Part shown: positions 7,709 through 22,246 of the stretch, piece after piece
Layout: the number at the start of each line of letters is the position of its first letter
How positions within the stretch are numbered: the first letter of the stretch is position 1
Assembly: GCF_000014265.1 (NCBI RefSeq)
Contig: NC_008312.1
Span: 6,690,001-6,722,000, forward strand
DNA from: Trichodesmium erythraeum IMS101
GTDB lineage: Bacteria > Cyanobacteriota > Cyanobacteriia > Cyanobacteriales > Microcoleaceae
DNA: 32,000 bases
Direction: 5' to 3'
Notes under the pieces: generated by a model
Told to the model about the DNA's origin: nothing
Databases searched by the model: none
What the model saw: only the letters and a program-made list of their open reading frames with translations
Program-made: the position numbers and the translations under genes

Positions 7709-7926
7709 CGATCGCTATCTAATATCCTCAGTCGAAGAAATTAGTTATTAAACTTTGTAGACTTTCTTGAAAAAGAAACTGCCCAAACTAGTTACTCATA
7801 AACCGATCATTGTGGCTCGATCGCTATCTAATATCCTCAGTGGAAGAAATTAGTTATTAAACTTTGTAGACTTTTTTGAAAAAGAAACTGCCCAAACTAG
7901 TTACTAATAAACCGATCATTGCGGAA
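7709..7926. repeat. 109-bp tandem duplication covering the 3' end and downstream flank of the PEP-CTERM gene
   Basis: 7709-7817 and 7818-7926 align with about 5 mismatches and both begin CGATCGCTATCTAATATCCTCAG. Copy 2 holds the real C-terminus (AMIGLLVTSLGSFFFKKVYKV*). Copy 1 reads TMIGL*VTSLGSFFFKKVYKV* and is therefore a dead copy. Confidence 0.9.
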
Positions 7927-8822
7927 GGCTCAGGAACATGCTTTGTTAGTTTATTTGTTGGTTGATCAGAAAAAGTATTTTCCGGAATAAACACGGCAGG
8001 ATCAGCGGAAGGCTCAGGAACATACTTTGTTGTTTGAGTAGAAAAAGTCTTTCCCTGAATAAACACGGCAGAATCAAGAGAAGAATCTCCTCCATCAGCT
8101 ATCGCTAGTTTGATATTATGAACACCAGGATCTAGTCCAAACGCTTGGGCAGTAAAGACATCAGTGAACCCATCAAATGATATATTGAACCTTTCTCCAT
8201 CATTATTATTGAAAAACTCAGGGTTACTCCCATTAGTTCCAAAAGGGTTGCCTCCGTTTACTGTGCTAATTGCAACTGGAGTAGATGTATTAGGAATGAG
8301 AGCAATATTTTTTCCGTTTAAAAAGAAGCCGAAGACATCGTTGAAGGCACTGCCAACATATTGGTTATATTCTTCCGAGGCAAACACATAATTAAAGAAA
8401 ATATTGCCTCCTGCTGTTTTAAACTGAAACTCTAGAATAGTAGCATCACTAGTTGAAACCCCAGGCATCAAGGCACCCAAATCAGGATCGCCAGAGAGCC
8501 CATTCACAGTACTTCGTTTACTTAAGTTATTCGGACCTACTGCATGTTCTGCTAAACCTGTACTTAGAATAATACCTTCATCAATACCTATTCCTGATTT
8601 AATTCCATTTTGGAAAAATCCTGAAGCACCAGTAGCACCAATATAATTAACAGAACCTGGCATTAGTGTAATTCCACTTCCGAGAATCTTCGATGCTAAA
8701 TCTTGTTCATTATTCCTAGGGGCTATAGAAATTGCCTCAGCTACAGTTGTTCCTGTTATGGAAAAAAAACTTGTTCCAGCGACGATAACTGAAAGTTTCT
8801 TCAGTAATTTTGACATATCCAT
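7857..8822 (-). CDS. Secreted choice-of-anchor-L domain protein with C-terminal PEP-CTERM sorting signal
   Basis: The domain body (ILGSGITL...GIDEGIILSTG...GDPDL...ILEFQFKTAGGNIFFNYVFASEEYNQYVGSAFNDVFGFFLNGKNIALIP...FDGFTDVFTAQA...IKLAIADGGDSSLDSAVFI) is followed by VPEPSAMIGLLVTSLGSFFFKK. I prefer the ATG at 8822 (MDMSKLLKKLSVIVAGTSFFSITGTTVAEA signal peptide, GGAG about 10 nt upstream) over the track start at 8879. Confidence 0.8.
   Translation of the reverse strand: MDMSKLLKKLSVIVAGTSFFSITGTTVAEAISIAPRNNEQDLASKILGSGITLMPGSVNYIGATGASGFFQNGIKSGIGIDEGIILSTGLAEHAVGPNNLSKRSTVNGLSGDPDLGALMPGVSTSDATILEFQFKTAGGNIFFNYVFASEEYNQYVGSAFNDVFGFFLNGKNIALIPNTSTPVAISTVNGGNPFGTNGSNPEFFNNNDGERFNISFDGFTDVFTAQAFGLDPGVHNIKLAIADGGDSSLDSAVFIQGKTFSTQTTKYVPEPSADPAVFIPENTFSDQPTNKLTKHVPEPSAMIGLLVTSLGSFFFKKVYKV
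7921..8076. repeat. In-frame 84/72-bp tandem repeat inside the PEP-CTERM gene
   Basis: Both units begin GCGGAAGGCTCAGGAACAT (7921 and 8005). They encode DSAVFIQGKTFSTQTTKYVPEPSA and DPAVFIPENTFSDQPTNKLTKHVPEPSA, so the VPEPSA sorting motif occurs twice. Confidence 0.85.
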
Positions 8823-9592
8823 TACCTTATTACTCCAATTAAATAAAGTATACCATATTATTATATCAAACAACATCAAAATTTGGGCGTTTGTGAATTA
8901 AGGTATCATTTGAGTTTATAAGGATCGCTTATCAACTCTATTAAACAAGTAGGAAAACTATTACCACGTTCTTAACTCTTCTCAAGAAACTCCTCAAGTA
9001 GGAGAGCTAGAAGAATTACAGACATAATTAAGCTCAAAAAAAAACCAAATTTGGCTGTAAACCGCAGTAAATCATTTTAAACAAGGAATTTTAGAATTGG
9101 TTATTGGAAGTCATAGTGGAAAAATCTTTTATTCTTTATGGGAACCAGTTAAAAAATGGGAATGTTGTTTTTATTTTACAGATGGATGGAAAGTATATGC
9201 CAAGACCTATTAATGATGGGGATAAAATTATCAGCAAAACCTTTATGACCAGAGTAGAAGGAGAAAACACTAGACTTCGGCACTATCTTGCCAGATGACA
9301 TCGAAGGACTCTTTGCTACTCAAAATCTCACGAGAAGTTAAAGCATTCAATTCCCTTACTGATCCATTAAATATCAATTTTGGAATGTTCCAGTTCTTTA
9401 TAGATATTCACAGTGATCGCTATCACCTCAAACCATATCCTAAGTCACCAATGCCAAAATTTGTATTATTTGTATATTTTTTGCAAATATTTTTTGCTAC
9501 CTTAATCAAATATTTGACAAATAAATCACAACTCTATATTTATTCAGCAAACCATGTAGAAGTAATTTAGAAGCAGTTCTCTAGAGAAAAAT

Positions 9593-14442: not shown

Positions 14443-14497
14443 TTTTTCGTTATCCTATGGGATTTTTATGATAAATTCCTAGGAAACTTAAGGTTAT

Positions 14498-14623
14498 ATA
14501 TAGTAATCCTATTTTTATGTGGTCTAAAATATTACCATTTTTTGGCAATATGTAATGAGTAATAGTTTTGGAGTTTATTTCTAGTTTTTGAATTTTTGCA
14601 ATAGTTTGATAGGATTACTATAT
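14498..14623. mobile_element. MITE-like element, copy 1 (126 bp, perfect 15-bp terminal inverted repeats)
   Basis: ATATAGTAATCCTAT (14498-14512) and ATAGGATTACTATAT (14609-14623). The core GGAGTTTATTTCTAGTTTTTGAATTTTT is shared with the element at 16711-16848. No coding capacity. Confidence 0.6.
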
Positions 14624-14734
14624 TAGTTTTGGAAAAATAATTTTTTTGTGAAAAAGATAACTATATTATTGAATTAACCATAATAATAAGTATCTACAAA
14701 TTAAGCGTTATTTATACGAGTTAATTAACAAGTT

Positions 14735-16437: not shown

Positions 16438-16710
16438 AAGCGATCGCGATACATAGACTATTAATAGTTATTATTAATAATAGAGGCTGAAATAAACTCT
16501 TTCTTCAAATAATATCATCTCTTCCGGTACAAAACACCTCAGGTAGTCTCTCTAGTCTCACTACTTCAATAGTGTTTTGTGCTTGAGCGGCTTGCAAGGC
16601 TGAGAACAATTCTATTCTTAACTGAGTGGTAATAACGCTCAGGAATAATTTGCCAGAATAAAGTTTAGTGTTTATGGCGGCAAGCGATCGCTAAACCAGA
16701 AAAGGATAGA

Positions 16711-16848
16711 TATGGCAATTCTATTTTATTTATGTTGAAAATCCTGCCACTTTTTGAGAATAGGTAATGGTGTAATGGTCAATAGGGAAGAGTTTTAGAG
16801 TTTATTTCTAGTTTTTAAATTGTCACAACTTACGAGGGAATTGCTATA
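16711..16848. mobile_element. MITE-like element, copy 2 (diverged, same orientation as copy 1)
   Basis: The ends TATGGCAATTCTAT (16711-16724) and GAATTGCTATA (to 16848) are imperfect inverted repeats. The core AGAGTTTATTTCTAGTTTTTAAATTGT matches copy 1. Overall identity is roughly 70% by eye. Confidence 0.5.
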
Positions 16849-17434
16849 CAATTTGATACATTGTTTATAGCTACTGAAAAGCTAGCACAATTTTATTTTG
16901 TATTCATTAGCAGCATGTTCATTTCTGAGCTTAACTCACTCTTTTTCTAGCTTTTCGATACGAGATTCCAGAGAAGCACCACTAGCATTAGTGGTAGAGT
17001 TGATAGCTTATTCAAGTCTAGTAAAAAACATAATTAGATATCTCCTGTCAATAATTAATAACTAACAATTAATAATTTATAAGCAAAGTTATGATATTTG
17101 ATTGGTTAACAAATATAGCCATAGTCAAAGCAGAAAAGCTTAGACATAGCCTAGCTAAATGGAATAATTATTATTCAGATTTATTATCATTATAAGGTAG
17201 TTTTTTTTATTTGACAAGATATCTTATATTTGACTTTTTTATGGGAATAATTATTGTTTGAAAAGCAAAATTTATTGGTTAATAAAAAGGAATAACATTT
17301 GATAAATTGAGGAATACTAAAATCACAAAAAAGAATAATATTTAATCTGGATTTTGTCTTATAGTTTGTGTCTAATTCTATTCGTTGAATTTTATATTAC
17401 AAATATATTACATTGATTTGAAAAAATTTTTCGA

Positions 17435-17449
17435 CTCGCCAGAGGCGAG
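17435..17449 (-). terminator. Short GC hairpin downstream of the kinase gene
   Basis: CTCGCC-AGA-GGCGAG, about 60 nt past the stop. On the minus strand it is followed by TCGAAAAATTTTTTC. Confidence 0.35.
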
Positions 17450-17506
17450 ACTCATGAGAGAAAAAAAAACACAGAGTAAAGGGCAAAAGAGGAAAAGAAT
17501 AAAGGG

Positions 17507-20155
17507 TTAAAGAGTTCTCCCGCCATCGCAGACAAGACGAAAACCAGTATCGTAGTTGAGGTCGACGCGCCTATAAAAGTAGTTGCGAACCGCAGAACGG
17601 CAATTAATAGGAAGGTTGAGCCAAGAACCGCCCCGCAGCGGTGATCGTTCTTTATTTCCATTTAGCCAAACACTGCCATCTGTAGGCGCACCAGCATAGT
17701 TATTATGCCATTCATCCGCACACCACTCCCACACATTTCCATGCATGTCATACAAACCAAAAGCATTAGCAGGAAATTGACCTACAGGAGTTGTTTGTTC
17801 TCTATATTTTCCTTTTGGTCCATTGCCGTAAGTGTAGTTACCATCATAGTTAACTAATTCAGTTGTTATAGTCTCTCCAAAGTAGAAAGGTGTAGTAGTT
17901 CCTGCGCGACAAGCATATTCCCACTCTGCTTCACTCGGTAGTCTATAGTCTCTTCCTGTTTTCTTAGAGAGCTTTTGACAAAACTCTGTAGCGTTATTCC
18001 AACTTACACATTCCACAGGGCGATTTTTTCCTTTAAATTCCGAAGGATCATTTCCCATTATTGCTTGCCACTGTTGTTGAGTAACGACATACTTTCCCAT
18101 CCAAAATTCTGGCACATCTACATAATGTTGCGGACCTTCCTTGTCAAGTCTTTCTGCTTCCGTATCTGGAGACCCCATTAGAAACCTACCTCCAGGAATT
18201 TTCACCATTTCTAAAGACACTCCATTACCCAAATCTTCAATTATCTGTCTAGCGCTTTCTTGCCTACGGTTAACAATACTTCCAGAAGCATTAACCCTTA
18301 CAACTTCAAAAGTAAATAATTTTCCTTTTTCTGGTTGAGATGTTTGTGGCTGAGATATTTGTGGTGGAGAAATATGCTGAGTTTTCCCGCCATCGCAGAC
18401 AAGACGAAAACCAGTAATGAAGAAGTGGTCGTCGCGCCTAACAGAGTAGGTGTCGCGAACCGCAGAACGGCAATAATTAGGAAGGTCGTACCAAGAACCG
18501 CCCCGCAGCGGTGATCGTTCTTTATTTCCATTTAGCCAAACACTGCCATCTGTAGGCGCACCAGCATAGTTATTATGCCATTCATCCGCACACCACTCCC
18601 ACACATTTCCATGCATGTCATACAAACCAAAAGCATTAGCAGGAAATTGACCTACAGGAGTTGTTTGTTCTCTATATTTTCCTTTTGGTTCATTGCCGTA
18701 AGTGTACTTGCCATCATAGTTGACTAATTCAGTTGTTATAGTCTCTCCAAAGTAGAAAGGTGTAGTTGTCCCAGCACGACAAGCATATTCCCACTCTGCT
18801 TCACTCGGTAGTCTATAGTCTCTTCCTGTTTTCTTAGAGAGCTTTTGACAAAACTCTGTAGCGTTATTCCAACTTACACATTCCACAGGGCGATTTTTTC
18901 CTTTAAATTTCGAAGGATCATTTCCCATTATTGCTTGCCACTGTTGTTGAGTAACGACATACTTTCCCATCCAAAATTCTGGCACATCTACATAATGTTG
19001 CGGACCTTCATTACTATGTCTTTTTGCTTCCGTATTTGGAGACCCCATTAGAAACCTACCTCCAGGAATTTTTACCATTTCTAAAGACACTCCATTACCC
19101 AAATCTTCAATTATCTGTCTAGCGCTTTCTTGCCTACGGTTAACAATACTTCCAGAAGCATTAACCCTTACAACTTCAAAAGTAAATAATTTTCCTTTTT
19201 CTGGTTGAGCTCTTTGTGGCTGAGATATTTGTGGTGGAGAAATATGCTGAGTTTTCCTTTGAGAAGTCGGTTGAATAACAGACAAAATTTCTCCTACATT
19301 TTGAAACCTTTTCTTAGTTGCTCCCACAATCATTTTATCCAATATTTCCCCACATTCATTACTCACATTTGATTGTAAATAATCCCGCCATACCCAATCA
19401 TTTTCACTCACATCAAATAAGTCAAAAGGTTCTATTTGAGTTAATAAATGAATACAAGTTACACCTAGACTATAAATATCACTTACAAAACTTGCTTTTC
19501 CTACTGACTGTTCTGGTGCCACATATCCCGCAGAACCTATAACCGTTCCCGTTCTTCCTAAAGCTGTCATTGTCGCATATTTAGCTGCTCCACAATCTAC
19601 TAATACTAATTGATTATCTTTTCTTCTCCTAATAATATTTTCTGGTTTAATATCTCTGTGAATAATTTGTTGGGAATGAATAAATTCTAAAACTGGTAAT
19701 AAACTTTTTAATAATTCTAATATTTGATTTTCACTAAAAGCACCTGACTCTTCTAGTTCCTGCTTTAAATTTTGCCCATCAATAAATTCTTGCACTAAAT
19801 ATTGCCGATTATTCTGAGTAAAATATGCTAAAAGTTCTGGTATTTGTGAATGCCTACCTAAACCATCTAAACGTTCTGCTTCTTGAGCAAATAATTTCGC
19901 AGCTTTTTCCAAATTTTTAGTTCCTTGTGCTTGAGGAAAAAATTGTTTAATTACACAAAAAGGCTTTGAAGGTTTATCTTCATCTACAGCTTGAAAAGTT
20001 CTACCAAAACCTCCTTCTCCGATTATTTTCAGAGGGCGATAACGTTCTCTTAATACTAATTTTTCACCACAGCTAGTACAGAATTTTGTTTGTGCTTGGT
20101 TAACTTCTAAACAGTCAGGGTTTAAACATTGAGTCGTTTCAATTTTTAGAGTCAT
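17507..20155 (-). CDS. Ser/Thr protein kinase with N-terminal zinc ribbon and two tandem FGE-sulfatase / C-type-lectin-fold domains
   Basis: 882 aa. Zinc ribbon CLNPDC...CTSCGE. Hanks kinase motifs GEGGFGRTF, VIKQ, HRDIKPEN, DCG, GSAGYVAPE. These are followed by two ~290-aa copies of an FGE-type domain (MVKIPGGRFLMGSP...PVECVSWNNATEFC...YRLPSEAEWEYACRAG...GNVWEWC...RGGSW...GFRLVC). Confidence 0.9.
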   Translation of the reverse strand: MTLKIETTQCLNPDCLEVNQAQTKFCTSCGEKLVLRERYRPLKIIGEGGFGRTFQAVDEDKPSKPFCVIKQFFPQAQGTKNLEKAAKLFAQEAERLDGLGRHSQIPELLAYFTQNNRQYLVQEFIDGQNLKQELEESGAFSENQILELLKSLLPVLEFIHSQQIIHRDIKPENIIRRRKDNQLVLVDCGAAKYATMTALGRTGTVIGSAGYVAPEQSVGKASFVSDIYSLGVTCIHLLTQIEPFDLFDVSENDWVWRDYLQSNVSNECGEILDKMIVGATKKRFQNVGEILSVIQPTSQRKTQHISPPQISQPQRAQPEKGKLFTFEVVRVNASGSIVNRRQESARQIIEDLGNGVSLEMVKIPGGRFLMGSPNTEAKRHSNEGPQHYVDVPEFWMGKYVVTQQQWQAIMGNDPSKFKGKNRPVECVSWNNATEFCQKLSKKTGRDYRLPSEAEWEYACRAGTTTPFYFGETITTELVNYDGKYTYGNEPKGKYREQTTPVGQFPANAFGLYDMHGNVWEWCADEWHNNYAGAPTDGSVWLNGNKERSPLRGGSWYDLPNYCRSAVRDTYSVRRDDHFFITGFRLVCDGGKTQHISPPQISQPQTSQPEKGKLFTFEVVRVNASGSIVNRRQESARQIIEDLGNGVSLEMVKIPGGRFLMGSPDTEAERLDKEGPQHYVDVPEFWMGKYVVTQQQWQAIMGNDPSEFKGKNRPVECVSWNNATEFCQKLSKKTGRDYRLPSEAEWEYACRAGTTTPFYFGETITTELVNYDGNYTYGNGPKGKYREQTTPVGQFPANAFGLYDMHGNVWEWCADEWHNNYAGAPTDGSVWLNGNKERSPLRGGSWLNLPINCRSAVRNYFYRRVDLNYDTGFRLVCDGGRTL
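17549..17620 (-). other. Hypervariable patch B (DGR variable-region-like) at the C-terminus of the kinase
   Basis: Encodes W-LN-LP-IN-CRSAVR-NYFYRRVDLNYD-TGFRLV. See the first finding for the codon-position analysis. Confidence 0.45.
18416..18490 (-). other. Hypervariable patch A (DGR variable-region-like), internal copy
   Basis: Encodes W-YD-LP-NY-CRSAVR-DTYSVRRDDHFFI-TGFRLV. It is one codon longer than patch B. Confidence 0.45.
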
Positions 20156-20253
20156 TTTAATTTTTAGTTATAAAATTATGCAGATAAATTATATAAAGCT
20201 ATAATTATAGCAATGCTATTTTATTTGTGGCAAAAATCTTACTGCTTTTTAGG

Positions 20254-20281
20254 TAACAAGCAACAGGCAACAGCCAACAGG
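20254..20281. repeat. STRR-like heptamer run
   Basis: TAACAAG CAACAGG CAACAGC CAACAGG in register. It resembles the short tandemly repeated heptamers (CAACAGT type) known from heterocystous cyanobacteria. Confidence 0.7.
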
Positions 20282-20539
20282 TAAGAGACTCAACTTTTTG
20301 ATCTACTTTTTGATTTGCCGGAACCTATGGGCGGATGGCTATATCTATTCTCATCATTTTCACACAGCCCTACTCTAAGAACTCTTAAAACTGCTGGGAC
20401 CATAGAAACCGGGTTTCTTCTTTCGAGTCTCTTGTTGTTACCTTTATAGCTGTTGTGAGATTCTCCCACTGCGACCATAAGGACCTTGTATACAACATCC
20501 TCAACATTAATTCATATTTTTTACCTAGAAATGAAACAC

Positions 20540-22120: not shown

Positions 22121-22130
22121 TTATATTTAA

Positions 22131-22246
22131 CCTGGCATCGTGCTATTTTACCGGGCAGCTACCCACCGAGTATCTTCACCACTGCAGCGTTTCACTTCCG
22201 AGTTCGAGATGGATCGGAGTGGTTCCACTGCGTCATAGACACCAGG
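22131..22246 (-). rRNA. rrf: 5S ribosomal RNA (116 nt)
   Basis: The reverse complement reads CCTGGTGTCTATGACGCAGTGGAACCACTCCGATCCATCTCGAACTCGGAAGTGAAACGCTGCAGTGGTGAAGATACTCGGTGGGTAGCTGCCCGGTAAAATAGCACGATGCCAGG. The terminal helix I is CCUGGUGUC/GAUGCCAGG. The loop C/E boxes (CGAACUCGGAAGUGAAACG, GGGUAGC) match bacterial 5S. Confidence 0.9.

Follow-up and report, generated by a model that had tools for sequence, protein, structure and literature searches.

Two variable regions of diversity-generating retroelement type in the tandem kinase-FGE protein Tery_4351 of Trichodesmium erythraeum IMS101, a probable orphaned remote target

Tery_4351 of Trichodesmium erythraeum IMS101 encodes a protein kinase followed by two tandem FGE/C-type-lectin (CLec) modules, and is located within a 32,000-nt stretch of the chromosome (NC_008312.1, positions 6,690,001 to 6,722,000; hereafter the window). 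Both modules carry a variable region (VR), VR-I in the internal and VR-C in the C-terminal copy, with the signature of a diversity-generating retroelement (DGR), and this signature is real. We consider it likely that Tery_4351 is a remote DGR target belonging to a third template lineage, probably orphaned and frozen in IMS101: the two template repeats (TRs) published for this strain are not its cognates, and neither a template nor a reverse transcriptase (RT) is present in the window.

The product of the Tery_4351 open reading frame (ORF) is a 100% match to the IMS101 protein ABG53343.1 / WP_011613669.1, tabulated as 'DUF323(2)' in a kinase survey of 2007 (PMC2176072). The FGE-sulfatase domain (Pfam PF03781) was found twice in this protein (E = 6e-115), and the module sequence matches the DGR variable protein TvpA (PDB 2Y3C) across the VR (E = 2.8e-21). 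By both Pfam and the TvpA sequence match, the VR is placed at the C-terminal end of a CLec/FGE-fold domain, as in DGR targets. The features of the gene are listed in Table 1.

Table 1. Features of Tery_4351 and its 3' region, in window coordinates
Feature	Position	Strand	Description
Tery_4351 (ABG53343.1 / WP_011613669.1)	17507..20155	minus	882-aa ORF: zinc-ribbon N-terminus, Ser/Thr kinase, two tandem FGE/C-type-lectin modules
Protein kinase domain, aa 39-284	19304..20041	minus	Pfam PF00069, E = 1.5e-37
FGE/CLec module 1 (internal copy), aa 301-590	18386..19255	minus	Module alignment and Pfam
FGE/CLec module 2 (C-terminal copy), aa 591-882 and stop	17507..18385	minus	Alignment and Pfam
VR-I (internal variable region), 27 codons	18413..18493	minus	W YD L P NY CRSAVR DTYSV RR DDH FFI T
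VR-C (C-terminal variable region), 26 codons	17546..17623	minus	W LN L P IN CRSAVR NYFY RR VDL NYD T
3' segment after VR-I	18376..18412	minus	Conserved only to GGCGGGAAAACTC, with one G-to-A change, then module 2 linker
Invariant 3' segment of VR-C	17507..17545	minus	GGTTTTCGTCTTGTCTGCGATGGCGGGAGAACTCTTTAA, 39 nt through the stop codon; candidate homing region, resembling an initiation of mutagenic homing (IMH) site
Pyrimidine-rich stretch of the 3' untranslated region (3'UTR)	17453..17506	minus	Conserved at orthologous loci L100 and L105 and at non-orthologous family-A loci L097 and L011
GC-rich hairpin	17435..17449	minus	CTCGCC-TCT-GGCGAG, then A/T run; z = -3.3

The two 870-nt modules were aligned globally. 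Outside one patch they differ at 19 of 787 aligned sites (97.6% identity), and these differences are distributed over codon positions 1, 2 and 3 as 5, 4 and 10. Inside the patch, 16 substitutions were found in 12 codons, six at position 1, ten at position 2 and none at position 3, the third position of each varied codon staying C or T; one 3-nt indel gives VR-I an extra codon. The variable sites span 17550-17620 in VR-C and 18417-18490 in VR-I. Between the modules, the 199 nt directly upstream of the patch show zero differences and the 31 nt after it are identical. Substitution density in the patch differs from that in the rest of the module (Fisher p = 6e-9), and so does the split between positions 1/2 and position 3 inside versus outside (p = 5.5e-4). 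A sequence-only reading of the window had reported about 19 differences outside the patch against the 16 substitutions and the indel within it. The global alignment bore out these counts, and the patch coordinates given there are correct to within one or two bases. The inside/outside bias in codon position is significant. Taken alone, the unchanged third positions say little and are not significant, since the background rate would put only about one such change into a stretch of 25 codons; the signal rests on clustering and codon pattern. No third copy of the patch was detected in the 32 kb by low-stringency blastn and a repeat scan.

A second cluster of 8 substitutions in 27 nt is located at 19010-19036 versus 18140-18166 (module positions 220-246; NTEAKRHSNE versus DTEAERLDKE). 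Third positions are among those changed, orthologues vary there too, and the cluster is not DGR-like. It may be due to selection on another surface loop or to gene conversion of the tract.

The VR was then compared with its orthologues. In Trichodesmium sp. MAG_R02 (locus L100, GCA_023356605.1), the kinase tail is followed by one FGE module, a stop codon, and then Peptidase_C39, ThiS and ThrC genes as in the window. Identity with IMS101 is 95% overall, as it is in the flanks, and falls to 70% over the VR. Against module 2, an 80-nt stretch over the VR contains 23 differing sites, 22 of them at codon position 1 or 2, in comparison with 34 differences in 799 nt outside the VR, 15 of them at third positions (Fisher p = 2.5e-11). 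A second locus, from an ENA marine metagenome (L105), has an IMS101-like 3' flank at 90% identity, one module and a different VR allele. For the orthologue comparisons, 22 of 23 and 17 of 18 VR differences fall at the first or second codon position. Two further Trichodesmium lineages, each with a single-module orthologue, thus differ from Tery_4351 in the same way and at the same sites as its two modules differ from each other. Four VR alleles (VR-C, VR-I, L100 and L105) stand against conserved flanks at the orthologous locus, which is between-strain hypervariability at the level of assemblies.

Only one module was found in every orthologue, that is, in P0007/L099 (syntenic with nadC and suf), P0009, P0010, P0011, L100 and L105, indicating that the tandem duplication is specific to the IMS101 lineage. 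Module 2 is the orthologue of this single module. The syntenic orthologue L099/P0007 (GCA_022448615.1) carries a C-terminal half-domain of the TR2 type (family B), from which it follows that half-domains, together with their VRs, have passed between template families at a single locus.

The neighborhood of this orthologue (L099:12443-21660), which belongs to a sister lineage known from a Trichodesmium metagenome-assembled genome, is a conflict-system of the VMAP type: downstream of the kinase lie genes for EAD7-CHAT, EAD7-VMAP-C, a MoxR-like AAA ATPase and an 889-aa FGE protein. This neighborhood is absent from IMS101, in which synteny breaks right after the kinase. In two other metagenome-assembled genomes (L097/L098; GCA_028982685.1 and GCA_028982335.1), a family-A kinase-FGE gene (P0013) lies upstream of a DUF323 gene near-identical to the IMS101 protein P0211. 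This would be a second locus with a lineage-dependent template family, if the IMS101 counterpart is one of the published TR2-type kinase targets.

Protein searches yielded many Trichodesmium FGE tails with the scaffold RGGSW-xxxPxx-CRSAxR-xxxx-RR-xxxxxxx-GFR[LV]VCDGGRTL, herein designated family A. For 50 distinct tails of standard length, 39 columns were analyzed. RGGSW, P, CRSA, R, R, GFR and VCD are invariant, and hypervariability is seen in 18 of the 39 columns, among them all 12 at which VR-C and VR-I differ (hypergeometric p = 4.7e-6). At the six single-adenine columns, 279 of 300 residues (93%) belong to the predicted sets, which are I/L/V/F (ATT), Y/S/C/F (TAT), R/G/W (AGG), D/A/G/V (GAC, twice) and H/P/R/L (CAC). 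At the twelve AAY-type columns, 595 of 600 residues (99%) fall within the 15 amino acids that AAY can give rise to; K/E/Q/M/W, which make up 21% of residues in these proteins overall, are essentially absent there. When the DNA of six family-A VRs, representing at least four loci, was aligned by codon, variation was found almost wholly at positions 1 and 2, the variable positions being in register with the adenines of TR2. The scaffold codons between them are invariant across loci, synonymous sites included. In a DGR target, variation is expected at the first two positions of codons that contain adenine, mostly AAY, while the scaffold around them stays invariant. The proposal of the sequence-only reading that a kinase-CLec fusion carries DGR-type VRs is thus supported both by orthologue differences at the same sites and by the residue sets of family A.

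Such a pattern might in principle arise without a retroelement, if a ligand-binding loop under strong diversifying selection were shuffled among CLec paralogues by short-tract gene conversion. Modules have indeed been shuffled at this locus, as the TR2-type half-domain in L099/P0007 indicates; the non-DGR-like cluster of eight substitutions at module positions 220-246 and the non-significance of the missing third-position changes point in the same direction. We nevertheless judge this explanation very improbable. Selection does not account for columns that use just the residues attainable when a single adenine of an unchanging codon is altered (compliance of 93% and 99%), the near-absence of K/E/Q/M/W, or scaffold codons invariant even at synonymous sites across loci. 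Furthermore, with flanks 100% identical over 199 nt upstream and 31 nt downstream, the converted tract must coincide with the VR, and DGRs with homologous templates are documented in the same genome and genus. The different diversifying mechanism listed as one option by the sequence-only reading is therefore not needed, while its other options, a remote or an orphaned target, fit.

The possibility that the two different VRs are a mis-assembly of a tandem repeat was also considered, as public short-read assemblies of the locus are demonstrably chimeric (L001, L002 and L102/P0001). The window, however, matches the finished IMS101 chromosome protein exactly, the independent metagenome-assembled genome (MAG) L001 holds both VRs unchanged, and both VRs obey the family-A rules; the chance of such an artifact is negligible. 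P0001, L001, L002 and L102 were rejected as sister strains, being chimeric assemblies of IMS101-like cultures rather than independent alleles. Each in-gene difference in them swaps module-1 and module-2 variants, the L102 flanks are, where measured, 100% identical to IMS101, and the two modules of the chimeric L102/P0001 are 100% identical to one another. Short-read assemblies of this locus (MAG GCA_018457135.1 and ENA LEEM17-1) swap or homogenize the modules, and would mislead allele comparisons.

IMS101 is known to possess two DGRs, at 1.62 and 2.63 Mb. As the sufBCDS cassette inside the window was put at 6.7128-6.7200 Mb by Pfreundt et al., Tery_4351 is located near 6.71 Mb, more than 4 Mb from either. 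An abundant 265-nt TR RNA was described beside the reverse transcriptase Tery_1728/1729, which is broken by a stop codon, together with 12 trans targets, mostly kinase-DUF323 proteins (Pfreundt 2014, PMC4143802). A later study gave the sequences of both TRs of the strain (TR1 and TR2) together with 18 remote loci, of which 11 are hypervariable in Tara metagenomes (Paul 2022, PMC8867640). The second reverse transcriptase, Tery_1035, is intact; the stop codon of Tery_1728/1729 is at position 39 (PMC4143802, PMC8867640). We took the TR1 and TR2 sequences from Paul et al. 2022 (PMC8867640). TR2 contains 26 adenines in 17 codons, in agreement with the description by Pfreundt, and the 12 targets of that study are thus TR2 targets. 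Tery_4351 is present neither among the 18 remote targets in Table S2 of PMC8867640 nor in any other published list of IMS101 targets. The survey of Vallota-Eastman 2020 (PMC7517822) sought templates in the vicinity of RT genes; its only listing of ABG53343.1 is as an unflagged paralogue.

Neither published template fits the Tery_4351 VRs. Between VR-C and TR2, identity is 68% over 100 nt, and of the 32 mismatches 13 are at TR adenines and 19 at non-adenines. VR-I differs from TR2 by 36 mismatches, 17 at adenines. With TR1, VR-C gave 35 mismatches (15 at adenines) and VR-I only a 42-nt local alignment. The 3' ends part right after ...CGTCTTGT. TR2 encodes ...GFRLVSFPP and TR1 encodes ...GFRVISSSPVVS, whereas both VRs of Tery_4351 end in ...GFRLVCDGG(R/K)T. 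TR1 and TR2 were rejected as templates of Tery_4351, as most mismatches are at non-adenines and the 3' homology of roughly 35 bp expected for targets of these templates is not conserved. The different 3' ends and the poor fit to the TRs explain why screens by TR homology did not flag this gene.

From the codon alignment of the six VRs, the sequence of a third template, TR-A, was reconstructed as GGCGGTTCTTGGAACAACAATCCTAATAATTGCCGTTCTGCGATTCGCAACAACTATAATAGGCGCGACGACCACAACAACAATACTGGTTTTCGTCTTGTCTGCGATGGCGGGAGAACTCTTTAACCCTTT. This putative template agrees with TR2 at 73 of 92 nt (79%), and the adenines of the two mostly occupy matching positions. As the sequence-only reading had stated, the 32 kb contain no RT, Avd-like gene or template repeat by Pfam, blastn and repeat scan; an RT or Avd-like gene was likewise absent from the gene tables of the syntenic contigs, and a TR-like copy from about 100 fetched loci. 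TR-A was not found in metagenome contigs, by a TR-specific pattern, or in viral contigs, scans that did not cover the rest of the IMS101 chromosome. No RT adjoins the family-A relatives among the contigs examined, all of which are remote targets. Several candidates were discarded: two metagenome matches of a permissive pattern are unrelated cyanobacterial VRs, the RT in L093 belongs to a group II intron, and a second VR-like match in L097/L098 is a neighboring DUF323 paralogue. The supplements of DiGReF and Wu 2018 contain no Trichodesmium TR sequence. When the Asn-rich peptide of the putative TR-A was searched against the protein database, TR-derived ORFs of other taxa (P0245-P0252) were detected, none of Trichodesmium family A.

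These P0245-P0252 records are short Asn-rich 'proteins' resembling DGR template repeats miscalled as genes, and some are annotated as FGE-family enzymes. Records of this type offer a possible route for mining TRs from protein databases.

The two VRs differ in length and in the segments on their 3' side. VR-C has the standard length of family A, which is shared by 55 of 59 matched tails, and VR-I exceeds it by one AAC-type codon; of the remaining family-A tails that were collected, only P0150 has a 26-residue variable stretch as in VR-I. The point made from sequence alone, that the 3-nt difference argues against one common template, is a fair one. The invariant 3' segment of VR-C is identical or near-identical at other family-A loci, and may serve as an IMH-like region. 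For the hairpin downstream of VR-C, a role as terminator, as DGR target hairpin or as both is conceivable; at other loci a hairpin occurs in the equivalent place with different stem sequences. VR-I has neither the 3'UTR stretch nor a downstream hairpin, the sequence after it showing z = -0.6 and no comparable structure. With these elements lost and an extra codon carried, VR-I is most likely a frozen fossil copy.

The opposite reading is that Tery_4351 is a live trans target. An unannotated, RT-less TR-A in IMS101 would be served by the intact DGR1 enzyme Tery_1035, or was formerly served by Tery_1728/1729 before its pseudogenization, and at least VR-C would still be diversifiable in the wild. 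VR-C indeed retains standard length, an intact 3' segment, the conserved 3'UTR and the hairpin, and conspecific or near-conspecific lineages hold different alleles at the locus. Use of a foreign template is not known to be the norm for a DGR reverse transcriptase, which counts against this reading. A stand-alone template could escape surveys anchored on RT genes (PMC7517822), and ample space for it would be provided by the non-coding, transcribed portion of the IMS101 genome, which is unusually large (PMC4143802). On the other hand, the TR/VR homology search of IMS101 gave 18 loci without Tery_4351 (PMC8867640), no TR-like copy was found in the window or the fetched loci, and VRs were unchanged when the cultured strain was resequenced (PMC4143802). 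We regard a live target as unlikely. As Tery_4351 is missing from the target lists and no published template matches it, the 'orphaned' alternative of the sequence-only reading gains weight, and Tery_4351 is probably an orphaned target of a third lineage.

For such an orphaned target, the following course of events may be proposed by analogy with known DGRs. TR-A RNA would have been reverse-transcribed with random misincorporation opposite adenines, and the resulting cDNA would have taken the place of the VR, with the invariant 3' segment as its guide. Rewriting of this kind would touch only positions 1 and 2 of AAY, TAT, GAC, CAC, AGG and ATT codons. The ancestral gene contained one module, which was duplicated in tandem in the IMS101 lineage. 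The two VRs came to differ either through rewriting of one copy after the duplication or through unequal recombination that brought two alleles together, routes that the data cannot separate. The third template lineage is, or was, probably active in Trichodesmium.

Several points weigh against this interpretation. The cognate template was not found, and TR-A is a reconstruction. Orphan status relies on four published surveys anchored on RT genes, and IMS101 may carry an unannotated TR-A. The 3-nt difference in VR length is not a product of canonical homing. Finally, the single module of L100 could in principle represent a collapsed assembly; the complete single-module proteins P0010 and P0011 and the loci L099 and L105 argue against such a collapse.

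Among known systems, Tery_4351 shares its architecture with the TR2 remote targets of IMS101 (Tery_0460-0463, 0247, 2829 and others; PMC4143802, PMC8867640), which likewise combine a kinase with an FGE/CLec domain, carry a C-terminal VR and lie megabases from the RT. The layout of the 25-codon VR core is common to both. The difference is in the scaffold and the 3' end, ...GFRLVSFPP... in TR2 and ...GFRLVCDGGRTL* in Tery_4351, and in the number of modules, one in the TR2 targets and two in Tery_4351. Several CLec domains each with its own VR, internal ones included, have been described for the DGR4/5 targets of Thiohalocapsa PB-PSB1 (Dore 2024, PMC10907252), and the VRs of one such target are diversified unequally (PMC10907252). 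The PB-PSB1 targets lie beside RT and TR, contain vWA/VMAP conflict-system domains and have VRs that match one TR, whereas Tery_4351 is a kinase fusion with no TR in hand. Both of its modules carry a family-A VR, but with 27 versus 26 codons, and VR-I is without downstream elements. TvpA (Treponema denticola variable protein 1, 2Y3C), the prototype of FGE-type CLec DGR proteins, shares with the homologous Tery_4351 module the FGE-subtype CLec fold and the C-terminal VR; unlike Tery_4351, it is a single-domain lipoprotein without kinase, encoded next to its DGR.

The class in which ABG53343.1 was placed is that of the cyanobacterial 'VP paralogues', CLec paralogues without qualifying TR homology (PMC7517822). 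The same study discussed the fixation of variants once a DGR decays; it did not note the adenine-mutagenesis signature of the Tery_4351 modules and their orthologues, which comes from a different template lineage. The sequence-only reading had regarded a kinase-FGE target without nearby RT, and with two VRs, as unusual. This did not hold, since remote kinase-FGE targets are expected in IMS101 (PMC4143802, PMC7517822, PMC8867640) and multiple or internal VRs have a precedent (PMC10907252). Thus the mechanism and the biology, multi-VR targets included, are already known; what is new is Tery_4351 as a member, its template family, and its absence from published catalogues.

The window has a G+C content of 34% and contains HIP1 palindromes, both in keeping with a cyanobacterium. 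An intergenic repeat of about 140 nt resembling a miniature inverted-repeat transposable element (MITE), with terminal inverted repeats of about 14 nt, is present in three copies (~14494-14625, ~16706-16850 and ~20201-20330, plus strand). Two of these flank Tery_4351, one in the ORF-free 1-kb stretch downstream and the other just upstream of the start codon. Two further groups of repeats were noted at 451-921 and 7709-8065: repeats of 117 nt in AT-rich intergenic sequence, and tandem repeats of 107-109 nt that occupy the end and part of the interior of the ORF at 7857-8879, which corresponds to Choice_anch_L in syntenic contigs. A lone 5S rRNA gene (22130-22246, minus strand; Rfam RF00001, 70 bits) is located between nadC and a 141-aa ORF; no 16S or 23S rRNA gene was found in the window.

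IMS101 is the reference example of a bacterial DGR that acts on many targets in trans, and population studies draw on its target lists. Tery_4351 is a target that was missed by three surveys or classed there as a plain paralogue, and illustrates that matching candidates to resident TRs under-counts DGR-shaped genes. VR families with a lost or unannotated template are still readable from comparison of paralogues and orthologues alone. In practice, the target catalogue is improved, a TR-A sequence is available for testing, and the gene offers a natural setting in which to ask whether internal VRs remain addressable. With respect to target evolution, the locus suggests module duplication, exchange of C-terminal half-domains between template families, and probable freezing of an internal VR. 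A wider picture can be offered only tentatively: TR-A may define a third DGR lineage, undescribed for IMS101, with numerous targets that are highly diversified in wild populations. IMS101 itself might keep fossil targets only, or an RT-less TR-A mobilized in trans by a resident RT, and the duplication might preserve, within a single gene, one VR in two states, frozen in the internal copy and rewritten in the other.

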